From an uncultured Chitinophagales bacterium (GTDB taxonomy: Bacteria > Bacteroidota > Bacteroidia > Chitinophagales > S012-47): 64,000 nt of DNA. The position numbers and the translations under genes are program-made. Positions within the stretch are counted from its first letter, which is position 1; each line of letters begins with the position of its first letter. The notes below the pieces were generated by a model, which saw only the letters and a program-made list of their open reading frames with translations, was not told where the DNA came from and made no database searches. The DNA lies in contig CAYRDC010000013.1 of NCBI GenBank assembly GCA_964422925.1, positions 4,334-68,333 of the forward strand, in the 5' to 3' direction. This document shows, one piece after another, positions 22,338-28,698 of the stretch.

Positions 22338-23018
22338 ATGGATGAGCAACATAAAATTCTGGTAGTGGATGATGAGCCTGACATTCTTCAGTTCATTCGT
22401 TATAATCTGGAAAAAGAAGGATACCATGTATTTGAGGCTGACAGCGGGGAAAAAGCCCTGGAGCTCGTGCGCAGCGAAGAGCCCGACCTGATATTGCTGG
22501 ATATAATGATGCCGGGACTGAATGGCATTGAAACCTGCCGCCTGATCCGCGAAAATGGAACCATACGCCAACCATTAATCGCATTCTTAAGCGCCCGTGG
22601 AGAAGAATTTACCCAGGTTGCCGGGTTCGATGCAGGCGCAGATGATTACATTACCAAGCCGATCAAACCGCGTTTGCTGGTCAGCCGCCTGAAAGCCTTG
22701 TTGAGGCGCAACCGGAAGACAGAATCAACCCGAACCCTGGAAACCTGCGGATTCTGTATAGACCGGGATGCCTATTTAGTACGGAAGGGAGACAATCAAT
22801 GGCATTTGCCGAGAAAAGAATTTGAATTGTTATACCTGCTTGCCTCGAGGCCCGGCCGCGTATTTACGCGGGATGAAATCATGCATCGCGTTTGGGGCGA
22901 TGAAGTCATCGTAGGCGAACGAACCCTGGATGTGCACATCCGCAGATTGCGGCAAAAACTGGGGAACGACCTGATAAAAACCGTGAAAGGAGTGGGTTAT
23001 AAACTGGAAGCCTCATGA
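22338..23018 (+). CDS. OmpR/PhoB-family response regulator (PhoB/PhoP-like)
   Basis: VVDDE, LLDIMMPG, GADDYITKP, RTLDVHIRRLRQKL, TVKGVGY. Confidence 0.92.
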   Translation: MDEQHKILVVDDEPDILQFIRYNLEKEGYHVFEADSGEKALELVRSEEPDLILLDIMMPGLNGIETCRLIRENGTIRQPLIAFLSARGEEFTQVAGFDAGADDYITKPIKPRLLVSRLKALLRRNRKTESTRTLETCGFCIDRDAYLVRKGDNQWHLPRKEFELLYLLASRPGRVFTRDEIMHRVWGDEVIVGERTLDVHIRRLRQKLGNDLIKTVKGVGYKLEAS

Positions 23019-24064
23019 AAAATCCGCGTCCCGGCCAGCTTGCTTTTTACGCGGCCGTAATCATAGCGTTGGTTACGGCTGCCGGACTGCTGATCGAATA
23101 TTACGCAACCGGACAGGTGCTGGCCTGGTGGATACCGGTCATTCTCCCTCTGGCTGTTTTGATTATTTCCTACGTGGTTTTTTTCCTGTTCCTGAAAGTT
23201 TTTATCTACCGGAAAGTAAAGTTGATTTACAAATACATTCATGAAACCAAAACAGGCCGCAACCCGGGCGAAAAGCCCGATTTACGCATGCCGGATATCA
23301 ATACTGTGGAAGCCGAAGTGAAGGAATGGGCTTCCAGCAAGCGGGAAGAATTGCAGCAACTCCGGGATACCGCCCGTTTCAGAAGGGAATTTATCGGCAA
23401 TGTTTCGCATGAACTGAAAACGCCCATTTTCAATATGCAGGGTTACCTCGAATCTTTGCTGGACGGAGGATTGCAGGATGAAAAAGTGAACCGGGATTTT
23501 TTGCGGAAAGCCCTGAAAAACCTGAACCGGATCGACCGTATTGTAAAAGACCTGGAAGTTATTTCTCAGCTCGAGGCAGGGGCCTTGGAACCGCGAAAAG
23601 TGCGGTTCAACATAACCAAACTGACGCGGGAAGTTTTTGAACTGCTGGAATATCAGGCCCGTTCGGGGCAGATTCAGCTGGAAATCAAGGAAGGCTGTGA
23701 CCAGCCGTTTTGGGTCATGGCAGACCCCGACCTGATCCGACAGGTGCTCGTGAATTTAATCATGAATTCAATTAACTATGCTACACCAGGCGAACCGGGT
23801 TTAACCAGGGTTGGGTTTTACGAAATGCACGATTATATCCTGGTGGAAGTTTCGGATCAGGGCATCGGCATCGCGCAGGAGCATTTACCGCGTTTGTTTG
23901 AACGGTTTTACCGAACGGATTCTGCCCGCTCGCGTAAAGTGGGAGGAACCGGACTCGGCCTGGCCATTGTGAAGCATATAGTGGAAGCGCACGGGCAAAC
24001 GGTGCATGTCCGGTCTTCGGAAGGAGTGGGTTCCACTTTTGGATTTACGCTGCAAAAAGCCTGA
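23015..24064 (+). CDS. PhoR-like sensor histidine kinase
   Basis: Two N-terminal TM segments, FIGNVSHELKTP H-box, FERFYRTD, GGTGLGLAIVKH. Confidence 0.9.
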   Translation: MKNPRPGQLAFYAAVIIALVTAAGLLIEYYATGQVLAWWIPVILPLAVLIISYVVFFLFLKVFIYRKVKLIYKYIHETKTGRNPGEKPDLRMPDINTVEAEVKEWASSKREELQQLRDTARFRREFIGNVSHELKTPIFNMQGYLESLLDGGLQDEKVNRDFLRKALKNLNRIDRIVKDLEVISQLEAGALEPRKVRFNITKLTREVFELLEYQARSGQIQLEIKEGCDQPFWVMADPDLIRQVLVNLIMNSINYATPGEPGLTRVGFYEMHDYILVEVSDQGIGIAQEHLPRLFERFYRTDSARSRKVGGTGLGLAIVKHIVEAHGQTVHVRSSEGVGSTFGFTLQKA

Positions 24065-24067
24065 ACG

Positions 24068-24905
24068 CTACCACCGCACCCGGCTGCCGGCATTAAGGGT
24101 GCTGCCGGCCCCGCTGTTGCGCCCCGCCAGAAATTTCGTAGCCAGTGTCTCCAGTTCCAGCACCCCGCCCAAGAAAACCTTTATGCCTCCGCCCGCCTGC
24201 AGGTAATATCCTTTAAACCCGCTCATCGTGGGGGCAAATTCCGCATTCACGTACAGAGCCATCCGGTTGTTGGGCAACAAGGTCAGAAATCCTTTCAACG
24301 CTCCGCCTGCCTGGAACGGAACGATGCCATTGGCCTCATTCCAGCGCACCAAAGCATCCATCCCGGCAAAACCCCAGATATTCCGGTGCACCGGAAAGGT
24401 AAACTGAAACTGCGTCCACCACAAAGACCCCTGGTATTCCAGGAAAGGATGGCTCCCGTCCCGGCCCTCCAGGTCGCGGGCTACCGGTATATAAAAAGTG
24501 CTCTGAACCGTAAACGGGGAATACCCCGGCCGGAGGGACCAGCGCAGCACCGGACCGATATGCGTAATGGCAGTACGGCTGTTGGCCGAATTGCCAAACC
24601 GGAAAATATTCCAAAAAGGAGCCGGCAGGGAATCCACCCGGACCGAACGGAACAGGCCTTCCACACCCACATTCCAGTTGGAACGGATCCCATAGGTGTA
24701 CCGGGCAAAAAGCGTAAGGTAATCAGACCGCACAGGCTGGGGTACCGCCTGGCCCTGTCCGTCAAAATAAGCAGTCTGCGTATACACATTCAGGAACAAG
24801 GATACTTCCGACATGCCCGCAAAGAGCGTTGCAGAAGGATCTATAAACAGCCAGTCTTCCGATTGAATGGAGGAAGACTCAATCCAGCTGTCTAGTTTTT
24901 TTTTT
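24068..24905 (-). CDS. Putative outer-membrane beta-barrel ORF lacking a signal peptide; probably expressed by a -1 shift from the DUF547 gene
   Basis: Amphipathic beta-strands and C-terminal Trp (…GSRVRW). The frame stays open upstream of Met 24814 through the A10 run to a TGA at 24922-24920, with no further ATG/GTG/TTG. Confidence 0.7.
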
Positions 24906-25617
24906 CGTTCAGACTCCAGTCATAGGTGTAATAAGTAATGGTAAAATCGGCTGGTATGGGATTATTCCGGTATTGGTTTATATACGACCTGATATCCATG
25001 CTTTGCGAGAGGAAATCGGCCTGGTACCATTCGAATATTTGCGAAATCTCTGCTTTTTTGCTTCCATAATCCAGCCGGATAAAGGAACTGCTATTGAGGG
25101 CTTTTCGGGTTCGCTGGTCCATTTGCGCGTTGAGATTTTCAGGCCGGAAGGCAAAATCAGCCAAAGGCGGGCATCCTTTTGCCCCGCAGACCAGCACAAA
25201 ATGCAACCTGGGGTCTTTGTACACGGCCAGCAGTTTTTGCTTTTCAATGATTTCAAGGCTTATCCTCTGACGGGCTACCGTATGGCTCTCGCTGGTGAAA
25301 ACATCGGGTATGTCGAGCGGGGATTTAACGGGATAATGCCCCACTATGGATTTGATCATGGTGAGGTTATAGGCATTGATCCAGAAAGCTTCGATTTCAG
25401 CGGCTGTCTTCCCCTGCAAATCAACGGCTGCCATCTCACCTATTAATTCATCCAGTTCATTGCGATGCTGTTTAACAGTCCGGTAATCCACCAGTCCGCC
25501 CGAAACATACTTTTGCAAAAAAGCATCGGCATCACTGAAAAAAGCATTAAGGTCCTGGGCATTCAGCGCGGAGAAAGACCACGCCAGCAGGCTTATCAGT
25601 AGAATGAATCGTTTCAT
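24892..25617 (-). CDS. DUF547 domain protein with signal peptide
   Basis: GLVDY, AFWINAYN, DPRLHFVLVCGAKGCPPL, SQIFEWY..DF, YDWSLN. Confidence 0.92.
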   Translation of the reverse strand: MKRFILLISLLAWSFSALNAQDLNAFFSDADAFLQKYVSGGLVDYRTVKQHRNELDELIGEMAAVDLQGKTAAEIEAFWINAYNLTMIKSIVGHYPVKSPLDIPDVFTSESHTVARQRISLEIIEKQKLLAVYKDPRLHFVLVCGAKGCPPLADFAFRPENLNAQMDQRTRKALNSSSFIRLDYGSKKAEISQIFEWYQADFLSQSMDIRSYINQYRNNPIPADFTITYYTYDWSLNEKKN

Positions 25618-25797: not shown

Positions 25798-27141
25798 ATG
25801 CATGTTGTCATTATCGGTAACGGCATTGCCGGAATTACGGCTGCCCGTTATATTCGCAAGTTAAGCGACCATGAGATCACTGTTATATCTGCTGAAACGG
25901 ACCACTTCTTTTCCCGCACAGCTTTGATGTATGTCTTTATGGGGCATATGCGTTTTGAAGACATCAAGCCCTATGAAGATTATTTCTGGAGGAAAAACCG
26001 CATTAACCTGTTGCGGGCCTGGGTGGAATCTGTTGACACGAATGTCAGGACAGTAACCACTTCCGCCAACCGGGTAATTCATTACGATGCCCTTTTGCTG
26101 GCCACCGGGTCGGCTTACAACAAATTCGGATGGCCGGGCCAGGACCTGGAAGGCGTACAGGGCCTGTACAGTTACCAGGATCTCGAACTGCTGGAACAAA
26201 ACGCAGCGCGGGCCCGCCAGGCCGTAATTGTGGGGGGCGGGCTGATCGGCATTGAACTGGGTGAAATGCTTCACTCAAGAGGCATTAAGGTTACTTTCCT
26301 GGTGCGTGAAAGCAGCTACTGGAACAACGTGCTGCCGCCTGAAGAATCGGAAATGGTAAGCCGCCATATCCTCGAACATCATTTCGACCTGCGGCTCGGG
26401 ACCGAATTAAAGGAAATCAAAGACGATGGCAGCGGGCACGTACAATCAGTGATTACCAGCCGGGGCGAAGAGATTCCCTGCCAGATCGTTGGCCTGACAG
26501 CCGGTGTCCACCCGAATATCACCCTGGCCCAATCAAGCGGAACCATTGAATGTGACCGGGGCATACTCGTGGACGAATACCTTTGCACCTCCGCCCCGGA
26601 TGTGTACGCTGCCGGTGATTGCGTTCAGCACCGGAATCCGCCTCCCGGCCACAAGCCCATCGAGCAGGTCTGGTACACGGGCAAGATCATGGGCCGGGCG
26701 GCAGCTCATACCATCTGTGGCACACCCAAAAAATATGAACCCGGCTTCTGGTTCAATTCAGCCAAATTTCTCGATATTGAATACCAGGTGTACGGAGAGG
26801 TGCCCAATACACCGGACACGGGCCTGTATTCGCTGTACTGGGAGCACCCCGATGGCAAAAAGAGCGTCCGGATCGTGTTTGACCCCTCAGACGGAAACAC
26901 GGTCCGCGGTTTTAACCTGATGGGAATCCGCTTCCGGCATGCCGTATGCGACCAATGGCTCCGGGAGAAATGGAATATCCATGAGGTAGTCCGCCACCTG
27001 GAAGCGGCCAATTTTGACCCGGAATTTTCCAAAAGGTACGAAAAGGAAATCCGGCAATTGCATAACCAGCGCTTCCCGGACCGGGCAGTAACCGGAGTGT
27101 CAAAAAAGTCTTGGAAATCAATGGTTTTCTCCTACCGATAA
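25798..27141 (+). CDS. NAD(P)/FAD-dependent oxidoreductase (pyridine nucleotide-disulfide family)
   Basis: GNGIAG, LATGS, VGGGLIGIE, TSAPDVYAAGD. Confidence 0.92.
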   Translation: MHVVIIGNGIAGITAARYIRKLSDHEITVISAETDHFFSRTALMYVFMGHMRFEDIKPYEDYFWRKNRINLLRAWVESVDTNVRTVTTSANRVIHYDALLLATGSAYNKFGWPGQDLEGVQGLYSYQDLELLEQNAARARQAVIVGGGLIGIELGEMLHSRGIKVTFLVRESSYWNNVLPPEESEMVSRHILEHHFDLRLGTELKEIKDDGSGHVQSVITSRGEEIPCQIVGLTAGVHPNITLAQSSGTIECDRGILVDEYLCTSAPDVYAAGDCVQHRNPPPGHKPIEQVWYTGKIMGRAAAHTICGTPKKYEPGFWFNSAKFLDIEYQVYGEVPNTPDTGLYSLYWEHPDGKKSVRIVFDPSDGNTVRGFNLMGIRFRHAVCDQWLREKWNIHEVVRHLEAANFDPEFSKRYEKEIRQLHNQRFPDRAVTGVSKKSWKSMVFSYR

Positions 27142-27153
27142 AATCCCTTGCTG

Positions 27154-28698
27154 ATGGAACAGTATGATATAAACATGTCTCTTACGCCTCCCTCGCGCAT
27201 GAGCGCTGGCGAACGGATCAGCCTGACGGTGGCCACCCTGGGTTTGCTGGGCATACTGGTCAGCTTCCTCGGAGCCGGACACAGCTACCTGATGCCTTTC
27301 CTGTTCGGGCTGGTGATGCTGGTGGTTGGCGGTGTATTGTACACTACCAAACGGCACCAGTATAAATCGCTGGCCGGGGTACTGTTCGCGGCCGGTATTA
27401 TTTCCTTGCTTTTCCTGAAGATTAAGCTTGAAATTCCGGCTGTTTACTTGGGTCCGGCAATTACGGTCTTTTTACTGGCAGGAGGGATTGCCTTTTTCTG
27501 GTTCCGTTTCGGAAGGGGCCCGGCCGGTATCCGGAATGATGGCATTTATCACAGCGAAGTCACCCGCAAAGGCGGTACTATCGCATGGTTTCTCGGCATC
27601 TTGTTTACTGGTTTTTACATTACCCTGTACTGGTTTCCTGAAAACCTCCACGGGCTGATTTACGCCACAGAACCCCTGTACCATGCCCTCACCGGGAAAT
27701 ATGCCATTTATTACGCGGAAGACGGATCAGTCACAGGGTATAACCAATGGTTCCTGTACGGACTTTTCTATACCCTGGCCGTCATCATAATGGGCACCCG
27801 GTTTATGTTCAAATACCGGCATAACCGTTACCAGCTGATCCGCACCGTTTCCGTCACCGTGGTCCAGTTGTTTATCGCCTTCCTGCTCCCTTCGTTCCTG
27901 GAAGCGCTGAACAACCAGGGCCAATCAGTGGAACCGTTTTATTTCAGCTATTTCTGGCCGCTCGACTATGACGCTTTGTTTCCGTCCTCGTTGTCTCATT
28001 ATGCCTATTCGCCCGGTATGTTTGGAAAATTCGTGTTTTACTGGATGATTATCGGGGCTTTTGTCGCGGTACCCGTTCTCACCTATTTGATTGGCAAGCG
28101 GTGGTATTGTTCATGGGTTTGCGGTTGTGGCGGGCTGGCAGAAACGGCAGGCGACCCGTTTCGCCATTTATCGGATAAATCGTTGAAAGCCTGGCGGATT
28201 GAGCGGATCAGCATTTATTCGGTATTGGTTCTCATTACCCTGATTACAGCACTGCTGCTGGTGAACTGGCGATGGCCGTTCATGGATGAGCAGCTGGCCC
28301 TGAGCCTGAAGAAAGGCTACGGGTTTGCCATCGGTTCCGTCTTCGCGGGGGTGGTAGGCACGGGCTTTTACCCTTTGCTGGGAAACCGGGTCTGGTGCCG
28401 GTTCGGATGCCCACAGGCGGCCATTCTCGGCATCATCCAGAAATACTTTTCCCGGTTCCGGATTACCACCAACGGGGCCCAGTGCATCAGCTGCGGCAAT
28501 TGCTCGACTTACTGCGAAATGGGCATAGACGTGAAATGGTACGCCCAGCGCGGGCAAAACATCGTCAGGGCCTCCTGCGTGGGCTGCGGGGTGTGTTCAG
28601 CGGTTTGCCCGAGGGGCGTGCTGAAGCTGGAAACCGGGCCTGTGGAAGGCCGCACCGAATTCACGCTGGACAGTGCAGCCATGAAATTCTACGCGTAG
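27154..28698 (+). CDS. Membrane polyferredoxin (NapH/NosR-like 4Fe-4S binding protein)
   Basis: About 10 TM segments; RWYCSWVCGCG, RVWCRFGCP, CISCGNCSTYCEM, CVGCGVCSAVCP. Confidence 0.9.
   Translation: MEQYDINMSLTPPSRMSAGERISLTVATLGLLGILVSFLGAGHSYLMPFLFGLVMLVVGGVLYTTKRHQYKSLAGVLFAAGIISLLFLKIKLEIPAVYLGPAITVFLLAGGIAFFWFRFGRGPAGIRNDGIYHSEVTRKGGTIAWFLGILFTGFYITLYWFPENLHGLIYATEPLYHALTGKYAIYYAEDGSVTGYNQWFLYGLFYTLAVIIMGTRFMFKYRHNRYQLIRTVSVTVVQLFIAFLLPSFLEALNNQGQSVEPFYFSYFWPLDYDALFPSSLSHYAYSPGMFGKFVFYWMIIGAFVAVPVLTYLIGKRWYCSWVCGCGGLAETAGDPFRHLSDKSLKAWRIERISIYSVLVLITLITALLLVNWRWPFMDEQLALSLKKGYGFAIGSVFAGVVGTGFYPLLGNRVWCRFGCPQAAILGIIQKYFSRFRITTNGAQCISCGNCSTYCEMGIDVKWYAQRGQNIVRASCVGCGVCSAVCPRGVLKLETGPVEGRTEFTLDSAAMKFYA

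Follow-up and report, generated by a model that had tools for sequence, protein, structure and literature searches.

How can an outer-membrane β-barrel be produced from a reading frame that has neither a start codon at its beginning nor a signal peptide, but that overlaps the end of a gene for a secreted protein? This question is raised by a minus-strand locus in the window, the 64,000-nucleotide stretch of an uncultured Chitinophagales genome analysed here. The upstream, 0-frame ORF (25617..24892, minus strand) encodes 241 residues comprising a signal peptide and a DUF547 domain (Pfam PF04784, E 6.5e-20, 71.8 bits against a gathering cut-off of 27) and ends in ..YDWSLNEKKN*; it is as long as the DUF547 proteins that stand alone in Flavobacteriaceae, which end in ..YDWxLNxxK*. 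The probable Sec signal peptide, MKRFILLISLLAWSFSALNA (25558..25617, minus strand), was recognised by eye in the translation from its basic n-region, its hydrophobic core and the sequence ALNA-Q, and would be the sole export signal for either of the two products proposed below.

The 3′ end of the DUF547 ORF reads ...CTG AAC GAA AAA AAA AAC TAG on the minus strand. It contains a run of ten A (A10, 24896..24905, minus strand), followed by C at 24895, within which lie the in-phase heptamers A_AAA_AAA and A_AAA_AAC (the latter at 24901-24895), and the 0-frame stop TAG (24892..24894, minus strand) abuts the heptamer. The −1 frame is open for 283 codons from stop to stop (24068..24919, minus strand), beginning LESERKKKLDSW... 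and ending ...SRVRW, and extends past the DUF547 stop for 275 further codons, to 24068. The sequence thus confirms the initial annotation in its account of a slippery A10 run, an adjoining stop and a −1 frame open to 24068. It was also right that the downstream part has no early start and no signal peptide: the first ATG, GTG or TTG of the −1 frame after its upstream stop is at 24814, the beginning of the listed downstream ORF (24068..24814), and no hydrophobic leader is present. In an alignment, Met 24814 falls within the block that is conserved at the N-terminus of the barrel family, which argues that it is not a start codon.

The resemblance of the downstream ORF to an outer-membrane β-barrel, previously noted from the sequence, was supported by structure prediction, as AlphaFold2 with a 59-sequence alignment returned a 12-stranded barrel with high confidence (pLDDT 94.3, pTM 0.89). 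Together with fold comparison, this model places the barrel domain at 24071..24850 (minus strand). No Pfam family matched the ORF at E up to 1, nor did any NCBIfam model, and a sequence search for a relative of solved structure gave a best E of only 0.24. At the level of fold, the barrel resembles the COG4313 channel in PDB 4rl8 (E 1.7e-10, TM 0.71) and FapF (TM up to 0.66), with which it has the 12-stranded architecture in common; given the missing Pfam and NCBIfam matches, the likeness to COG4313 appears to be one of fold only and not of sequence-family membership.

Between the two domains, the −1 frame encodes a linker (24851..24895, minus strand) that corresponds, in the alignment and in the model of the natural in-frame fusion L093, to a disordered linker. 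In that model, residues 242-261 have pLDDT below 50 and the fusion as a whole has a pTM of 0.57, a low value that gives no ground for claiming a fixed DUF547-barrel interface; a Foldseek search with the full-length fusion returned matches to the barrel and none to the DUF547 part. The predicted order of signal peptide, N-terminal domain, linker and C-terminal 12-stranded barrel resembles that of type Va autotransporters. We rejected assignment to this class, since the linker at residues 242-261 is modelled as disordered, with no helix threading the pore, no Pfam autotransporter family matches, and the barrels of NalP, EspP and BrkA align with TM of only 0.52-0.59. Moreover, other lineages encode DUF547 as a separate secreted protein, which favours a role as periplasmic partner over that of a passenger.

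Is the A10 run real? The initial annotation had left room for A11, to be decided from raw reads. Here, assembled contigs stand in for reads, and Logan contigs from the likely source run (X1) and from an independent study (X2, record 3, 24843-25500) show zero differences and zero gaps relative to the window, so that A10 stands in contigs of two studies, which as contigs hide minority tract lengths such as A11. The genome (GC 50.5%) contains 41 runs of at least nine A or T, 12 of them inside intact ORFs. Because only one of the 41, the A10 at 24896-24905, separates two long ORFs in different frames, the layout of DUF547, A-run and barrel exceeds chance.

The same split layout was found in 18 species-level genomes, all of them metagenome-assembled (the window, L012, L015, L017, L016, L035, L006, L010 and L029, together with L041/L208, L043/L209, L060/L207, L210, L211, L213, L214, L215 and L216). 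In every one a −1 shift is needed to join the frames, and in none a +1 shift. The run is A10 in two, A9 in seven, A8 in one and A7 in eight; an in-phase A_AAA_AAN heptamer is present at the run in all 18, and the 0-frame stop abuts it in 14 and follows one or two codons later in the remaining four. The nine Cytophagales-type genomes have exactly A_AAA_AAG, written as GAA AAA AAG or AAC AAA AAA AAG, and then TAA or TAG. In L015, L017 and L006, the run is flanked directly by a stop in the −1 frame, and the stop of the 0 frame comes zero to two codons past it, so that the shift would have to take place within a tiny interval. A scan of metagenomes yielded no close relative of the window (best identity 38%) and added only L093, an in-frame fusion with A10, and a duplicate of L017.

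The barrel ORF appears to be under strong purifying selection between split species, with dN/dS of 0.113 at a dS of 1.03 (L015-L017) and 0.060 at a dS of 1.12 (L041-L043), values as low as those of the DUF547 half. These data bear directly on the possibility that the layout stems from a mistake in sequencing or assembly, or that it is an in-frame fusion recently decayed to a pseudogene. Homopolymers are indeed error-prone, every split genome seen is a metagenome-assembled one, and one of them (L010, 57% complete) has a second break in its barrel ORF. However, an identical −1 layout recurs in 18 genomes that come from many different studies and were built with many assemblers, and a fixed GTA valine codon in the fusion frame preserves the 0-frame stop. 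With the A10 of an independent contig, the 12 long runs that this genome carries inside intact ORFs, and a dN/dS of 0.06-0.11 at a dS near 1, this argues that the split arrangement is not an assembly error, and we consider error or recent decay very unlikely.

Could the barrel instead be a gene of its own, translated by reinitiation or from a non-canonical start? In Flavobacteriaceae and others, DUF547 and the barrel are indeed distinct adjacent genes (70 rows scored as separate). Every own-gene barrel starts with a Met and a hydrophobic leader, but split barrels have neither. For 98 own-gene barrels with a signal peptide, the median of the maximum hydrophobicity is 2.81 and a Met is present in all; at 17 split loci, the residues ahead of the conserved barrel block reach maxima of only 0.49-1.89, with no Met in 13, and the maximum Kyte-Doolittle value of the window's −1 ORF is 1.29 (10-residue window). 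Homology also reaches upstream of the sole Met. Export of an outer-membrane barrel requires a signal peptide, which weighs further against a separate gene. Split barrels thus seem to have no independent route of expression, and we consider translation as a separate gene very unlikely.

Relatives without the run are either in-frame fusions with other linkers or pairs of genes in which each has its own signal peptide. The homologue comparison that the initial annotation had proposed therefore came out in favour of its reading on both sides, with the A-run, a nearby 0-frame stop and the −1 overlap all kept in the 18 species-level genomes, and with other relatives being in-frame fusions lacking the run or barrel genes with their own start and signal peptide. 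Since 47 of the 49 listed in-frame fusions have unrelated linkers after YDWxLN, the lysines at the run are apparently dispensable for the protein. The two that carry KKK, L025 and L093, both encode it as A10, and both retain a stop that is reached upon loss of one A; keeping the run and this latent stop suggests a need for both isoforms, regardless of the frame in the genome.

These in-frame cases bear on phase variation in the DNA, the alternative offered by the initial annotation. Slipped-strand mispairing at replication would then switch the barrel on at A11 and off at A10 in subpopulations. A homopolymer within a surface-protein gene would suit such switching, as would the one-A difference between related species (A9, off, in L015 and L017; A10, on, in L093), the in-frame A10 of L025, and a Logan contig of run X4 that stops exactly at 24905, which could be a branch in the assembly graph. 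Against this, of the 20 genomes with the run, 18 are off, each time as n−1 and never as n+1. The A7 tracts of eight species are poor mutators, A10 recurs in two samples from different studies (as contigs, in which minority variants are hidden), and L093 is separated from L015 and L017 by a dS of 1.2-1.9, so that theirs is a difference between species and no switching. It would also be hard to see why an ORF whose consensus state is nearly always off should be under such strong purifying selection. We therefore disfavour phase variation and regard it as improbable.

We consider it likely that the window locus undergoes programmed recoding of some kind. Both a ribosomal and a transcriptional route are entertained because A10 is long enough for either, and, given recoding, ribosomal frameshifting would be the main route by our moderately confident estimate, while slippage of RNA polymerase, adding one A, may plausibly be the main or an equal one. 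Features expected of −1 ribosomal frameshifting are present in the window: an in-phase X_XXY_YYZ heptamer, a 3′ structure, and a conserved, selected −1 ORF (dN/dS 0.06-0.11) without initiation of its own, having neither Met nor leader. In E. coli, efficient −1 shifting is reported for the heptamer A_AAA_AAG, and A_AAA_AAC is reported as a proven case in IS1 (PMC4066793).

The 3′ structure is a predicted RNA hairpin of 9 + 8 bp (24844..24894, minus strand), a candidate frameshift stimulator that begins at the stop codon. Its 70-nt segment folds with −21.2 kcal/mol (z −2.62), and none of 200 shuffled sequences was as stable. Significant hairpins were also predicted at L060 (z −2.40), L213 (z −3.16, 0/200), L214 (z −4.35, 0/200) and L215 (z −3.11, 1/200), the stable hairpins starting 3-6 nt 3′ of the heptamer, and the L213-L216 group shows double compensatory changes in four of 13 pairs. 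The exact A_AAA_AAG with adjoining stop in nine genomes, the hairpins and the compensatory changes together have the appearance of a ribosomal signature. Eight of the nine A9/A10 split loci (L012, L015, L017, L016, L035, L029, L006 and L010) lack a significant structure, with z from −1.07 to +0.95, and the downstream structures of L211 and L216 are not significant either. The L207-L210 hairpin shows covariation in none of its eight pairs, and its conservation could be due to the encoded peptide. By eye, no upstream Shine-Dalgarno-like element is conserved across the loci; GGAG arises where Trp-Ser is encoded as TGG AGY. A putative stimulatory structure is thus present in the window but not throughout the family, and since many split loci have no significant hairpin, a single ribosomal signal is not universal.

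Transcriptional slippage as the main mechanism, in which RNA polymerase adds one A on A10 to give an in-frame fusion mRNA, is a variant of recoding that overlaps our best explanation. The window has A10 and eight other split species have A9-A10, all eight of these loci lacking a significant downstream hairpin, and runs of A9 in Thermus dnaX (PMC3711429) and A11 in tssM1 (PMC4256274) are reported to slip. The in-frame L025 and L093, with their A10 runs and the stop one A away, are harder to reconcile with a purely ribosomal frameshift than with slippage or drift in tract length. The nine species with A7-A8, however, fall short of the roughly nine or more A/T expected for efficient slippage, and the direction is uniform: all 18 split loci need −1 and the two others are in frame, whereas confirmed slippage families are reported to include both +1 and −1 clusters of orthologues (PMC3711429). 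Furthermore, the phase of the heptamer and the adjoining stop are conserved, and the hairpins lie downstream, where a ribosomal stimulator would be expected. As the principal mechanism, slippage is therefore possible but, in our judgement, rather unlikely.

Under the preferred reading, programmed −1 recoding, most ribosomes would translate the signal peptide and DUF547 and stop at the TAG at 24894-24892, releasing a soluble, periplasmic 241-residue DUF547 protein. A minority would slip by −1 on the A-run, at the in-phase A_AAA_AAC or A_AAA_AAA, aided by the adjoining stop codon and the hairpin at 24894-24844, and would go on to read the flexible linker and then the 12-stranded barrel, giving a fusion of about 516 residues whose barrel would reach the outer membrane by means of the DUF547 signal peptide. 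The occurrence and efficiency of the shift, the location of both products and their function are all inferred from sequence. No RNA run was found to contain the locus, and the one metatranscriptome of the source sample has almost none of its sequence words. We infer a junction of ..EKKN-LDSW.. for tandem ribosomal slippage and ..EKKK-LDSW.. for an inserted A; of the junction peptide given in the initial annotation, the LDSW side stands, and the DUF547 side had dropped one residue.

What the two products might do is hinted at by a near-invariant Cys pair across DUF547 and by the fusion of plant DUF547 to glutaredoxin, which may point to thiol or redox chemistry in the periplasm, tethered to a channel for small molecules. 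The surrounding genes do not bear out the arsenosugar neighbourhood suggested earlier, as none of the 15 neighbours within about 8 kb on either side matched an arsenic-specific Pfam family; their Pfam matches were to a response regulator, histidine kinase, Usp, VIT1, permease, Pyr_redox_2, a 4Fe-4S membrane protein, glycosyltransferases, a methyltransferase and OmpA.

Similar arrangements are known elsewhere. Like the window, E. coli dnaX and the IS3 and IS1 elements combine an in-phase poly-A X_XXY_YYZ heptamer, a short spacer and a 3′ stem-loop (PMC4066793, PMC3711429), and yield two products with a common N-terminus, which in the window are predicted. As in IS3 and unlike in dnaX, shifting would give the longer product, here with an entire additional membrane domain. 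Unlike in dnaX and IS3, the 0-frame stop abuts the heptamer and, by eye, no upstream Shine-Dalgarno-like element is conserved, and the window gene is a chromosomal, non-mobile gene of Bacteroidota. Citrobacter rodentium tssM1 and Thermus thermophilus dnaX also have poly-A just before a premature stop and two length variants. For tssM1, with A11, action at the RNA level has been shown and both forms of the envelope protein are reportedly needed (PMC4256274), whereas recoding in the family described here is predicted from sequence, and half of its split members differ from both genes in having only A7-A8 plus hairpins, with uniform direction. The coexistence of split and fused forms is shared with GeneTack clusters such as magnesium chelatase and DUF111, where poly-A splits in some genomes and in-frame fusions elsewhere were taken as an argument for recoding (PMC3711429).

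The main text of that study names no DUF547 cluster, its survey covering only 22 Bacteroidetes genomes, and it was the only paper we found on programmed transcriptional slippage in this phylum (PMC3711429). The first 300,000 characters of the Atkins 2016 review contain no mention of DUF547 or outer membrane, and among the DUF547 papers listed, mostly on plants, we found nothing on bacterial recoding. The mechanism itself is already known; the DUF547-barrel pair would be a new case of it. To our knowledge, conserved programmed frameshifting in non-mobile bacterial genes comprises few cases, and we know of none in Bacteroidota envelope biology.

Taken across the genomes, the DUF547 and barrel pair appears to occur in three states: two genes, one recoded gene, or a simple in-frame fusion. 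In a FastTree phylogeny of 159 barrels, from which L210-L216 and the broken L010 are omitted and whose deep branching is poorly resolved (49 open forks and numerous long branches), the split forms do not make up one clade, with six changes of which at least four are forced. We think it probable that these loci constitute a chromosomal recoding family of Bacteroidota that has been maintained in evolution and not described before, with a dnaX-like A_AAA_AAG/N site that is in some lineages a polymerase-slippery A9-A10, placed in the linker between DUF547 and a channel. If so, the recoded state arose several times or persisted across orders, and the natural three-state series offers a means of studying how recoding sites originate.

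In practical terms, gene callers run on these genomes will list, after DUF547, a truncated ‘hypothetical protein’ that lacks a leader. The uncharacterised DUF547 in turn is linked to a COG4313-like channel as its partner, so that its function can be sought more narrowly. If the proposal is true, one promoter and one signal peptide would provide a fixed ratio of free periplasmic and channel-tethered DUF547, with recoding deciding whether a periplasmic domain stays free or is attached to an outer-membrane channel.

The upstream ORF on the minus strand of the window encodes 241 amino acids (25617..24892; Pfam DUF547, E 6.5e-20, 71.8 bits against a cut-off of 27), opens with what reads in translation as a putative Sec signal peptide (MKRFILLISLLAWSFSALNA), and closes with the minus-strand sequence ...TAT GAC TGG AGT CTG AAC GAA AAA AAA AAC TAG, in which a run of ten adenines (A10, 24905-24896) precedes the 0-frame stop TAG (24894-24892). 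The -1 frame is open for 283 codons from stop to stop (24919 to 24068, minus strand), with its earliest ATG, GTG or TTG at 24814. Every feature described from sequence in the initial annotation is present in the window. No Pfam or NCBIfam family matched the -1 frame ORF, which AlphaFold2 modelled from a 59-sequence alignment as a 12-stranded barrel (pLDDT 94.3, pTM 0.89). The top solved neighbour of this model is the COG4313 outer-membrane channel 4rl8 (E 1.7e-10, TM 0.71), with TM scores up to 0.66 against FapF and of 0.52-0.59 against autotransporter beta-domains.

Divergent from the DUF547 gene, the plus strand carries a flavoprotein of the Pyr_redox_2 family (447 aa) and a membrane protein of 516 aa with 4Fe-4S motifs (25798-28698), and an ORF sharing the oxidoreductase-like N-terminus occupies the same place in three relatives of the family (L002-L004). 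A pair comprising an OmpR-type response regulator and a histidine kinase (22338-24064, plus strand) is convergent with the barrel ORF and abuts its 3' end, the stops of kinase (24064) and barrel (24068) lying 3 nt apart; this kinase is likewise in the same place in L002-L004. Nothing arsenic-specific was found by Pfam among the neighbours within about 8 kb on either side, and the 'arsenosugar neighbourhood' initially assigned to the locus was not borne out.

Barrel homologues were detected in 11 of 41 close relatives, in 54 of 401 genomes of the window's order, in 316 stretches of a species-representative genome collection and in 117 metagenome stretches, the best 80 being analysed in each of the last two sets. 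They occur in four architectures: (a) in-frame fusions of signal peptide, DUF547, linker and barrel (500-577 aa), in MAGs labelled Saprospiraceae, KSB1, Rhodothermales/Salinibacter and others, where the linker following a conserved YDWxLN motif is unrelated in 47 of the 49 fusions listed; (b) two adjacent genes in Flavobacteriaceae isolates such as Maribacter, Zobellia, Cellulophaga and Aquimarina, in which the C-terminus of DUF547 reads ..YDWxLNxxK* and the barrel gene brings an ATG and a hydrophobic leader of its own; (c) solitary barrels with their own leader; and (d) the split arrangement of the window, with DUF547 running into an A-run, a 0-frame stop 0-2 codons on, and the barrel in the -1 frame. 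After removal of duplicates, 18 species-level genomes showed the split arrangement, comprising eight of the 54 matching genomes of the window's order (G000, which is the window's own, G003, G004, G006, G013, G016, G022 and G027), a further genome (L029) beside these, and nine of the 15 with a match among 81 relatives of a Cytophagales MAG. The homologue check proposed at the outset favours the initial interpretation: the A-run, nearby stop and -1 overlap are common to all 18, and other relatives are in-frame fusions or barrels with their own leader.

In L010, a split locus in a genome (G027) that is 57% complete, the frame of the barrel ORF is broken a second time 64 codons past the A9 run (about 1349-1492), which may reflect decay or poor assembly. 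A fused form on a contig labelled Ectothiorhodospiraceae (L040) and an A7 split form on one labelled Hyphobacterium (L060, within a Cytophagales trio) both group with Bacteroidota sequences, which points to mis-binning or horizontal transfer. At L212 (G476), a barrel homologue lies in a 364-codon open frame with an odd N-terminal extension and no recognisable DUF547 at the locus.

Logan contigs from X1, the probable source run, matched the window with no differences or gaps, as did a contig from the independent study X2 (record 3, 24843-25500), so that both carry A10 at contig level, where minority length variants would be invisible. Among 41 A/T runs of 9 or more in the 2.72-Mb window genome (GC 50.5%), 12 sit within intact ORFs and only the window's A10 parts two long ORFs in different frames; homopolymer miscalls are therefore uncommon in this assembly. 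An artefact or pseudogene is very unlikely. The genome's longest homopolymer, a T15 (G000 contig C32:10636-10650), lies inside a 125-codon open frame. Run X4 represents another sample of the source study, and one of its Logan contigs (record 9) terminates exactly at 24905, the first base of the A-run, which could reflect a graph branch from length heterogeneity, or chance.

Export of an outer-membrane barrel requires a signal peptide. In the split genomes that of DUF547 is the only one available, and independent initiation of the barrel is extremely improbable: the conserved family block TPSxLLxxGQxExKLFNNLYTQ begins upstream of the window's only Met (24814), which aligns to Gln or His of relatives. 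Over the segment from where the -1 frame opens to the start of this block, 17 split loci reach a maximum Kyte-Doolittle 10-residue score of just 0.49-1.89, and 13 of them lack Met there, versus a median of 2.81 (range 1.72-3.67) and Met in every one of 98 type (b) and (c) barrels. Although it lacks a start of its own, the barrel ORF of split genomes is maintained, judging from substitution patterns. Between two pairs of split species, dN/dS of the barrel half (Nei-Gojobori, own script) was 0.113 (L015 vs L017, dS 1.03) and 0.060 (L041 vs L043, dS 1.12), similar to or below DUF547-half values, and synonymous sites are near-saturated, yet the run, frame offset and stop are retained. In 14 of 18 split genomes, the lysines are succeeded in the fusion frame by a Val written GTA with A or G as the next base, a choice that preserves a 0-frame TAA or TAG.

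Phase variation at the A-run, also proposed initially, is unlikely and disfavoured by this strong selection on the barrel, by an 'off' state that is n-1 every time, by eight species having only A7, and by A10 in both samples at contig level. Separately, five near-identical marine metagenome contigs (L146, L151, L156, L162 and L167, about 1355-1375) carry an intergenic run of A8 or A9 directly after the DUF547 stop, which varies the frame offset to a separate barrel gene and shows A-run length instability, natural or technical, in a DUF547-barrel gene pair.

Recoding at the window's A-run is very likely, and we take the route to be mainly ribosomal -1 frameshifting, since the window combines heptamer, stop and hairpin. 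The run is A10 in two, A9 in seven, A8 in one and A7 in eight of the split genomes; all 18 have an in-phase A_AAA_AAN heptamer and need a -1 shift (+1 in none), and such uniformity of direction served PMC3711429 as a criterion for ribosomal frameshifting. In nine genomes the heptamer is precisely A_AAA_AAG with an immediate stop, in A7-A8 runs that are short for polymerase slippage. Stable predicted hairpins begin at the stop codon of the window (-21.2 kcal/mol, z -2.62, 0/200 shuffles folding as well) and 3-6 nt past the heptamer in split loci L060 (-18.0, z -2.40, 4/200), L213 (-24.1, z -3.16, 0/200), L214 (-28.9, z -4.35, 0/200) and L215 (-27.5, z -3.11, 1/200), with double compensatory changes in 4 of 13 predicted pairs in the L213-L216 group. 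However, polymerase slippage may contribute substantially at A10: downstream structure was not significant in eight A9/A10 split loci (z -1.07 to +0.95) or in L211 and L216, and the L207-L210 hairpin showed no covariation. An in-frame A10 is present in two relatives, L025 (CGA AAA AAA AAA GTA) and L093 (ATT AAA AAA AAA AGT), the latter at 77-82% protein identity to the A9 split species L015/L017 (dS 1.2-1.9). Loss of one A would lead both straight to the same conserved stop, and they could therefore make both isoforms by slippage.

Under recoding, the 0-frame product would have the same extent as free-standing Flavobacteriaceae DUF547, and the shifted product that of natural fusions. The natural fusion L093 was modelled (35-sequence alignment; pLDDT 90.2, pTM 0.57) as two well-folded domains separated by a disordered segment (residues 242-261) directly after the KKK site, which places the recoding site in a linker whose residues are free to vary. 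Two cysteines of DUF547 are nearly invariant (VCxxxGCP); the Pyr_redox_2 and 4Fe-4S neighbours may be functionally linked to this Cys-pair domain, and the modelled barrel is similar to channels that carry small hydrophobic molecules. In plants, DUF547 is fused to glutaredoxin (PMC13621322). Mechanisms of this class are well known (dnaX, IS1/IS3, tssM1, GeneTack clusters); a DUF547-barrel recoding family is not described in the literature searched, including the main text of PMC3711429 and parts of the 2016 review PMC5009743, and an earlier database listing is possible. The case is of real interest to specialists in recoding and in the Bacteroidota envelope and is relevant to genome annotation; as to function, our guess is a periplasmic thiol/redox module at an uptake channel.
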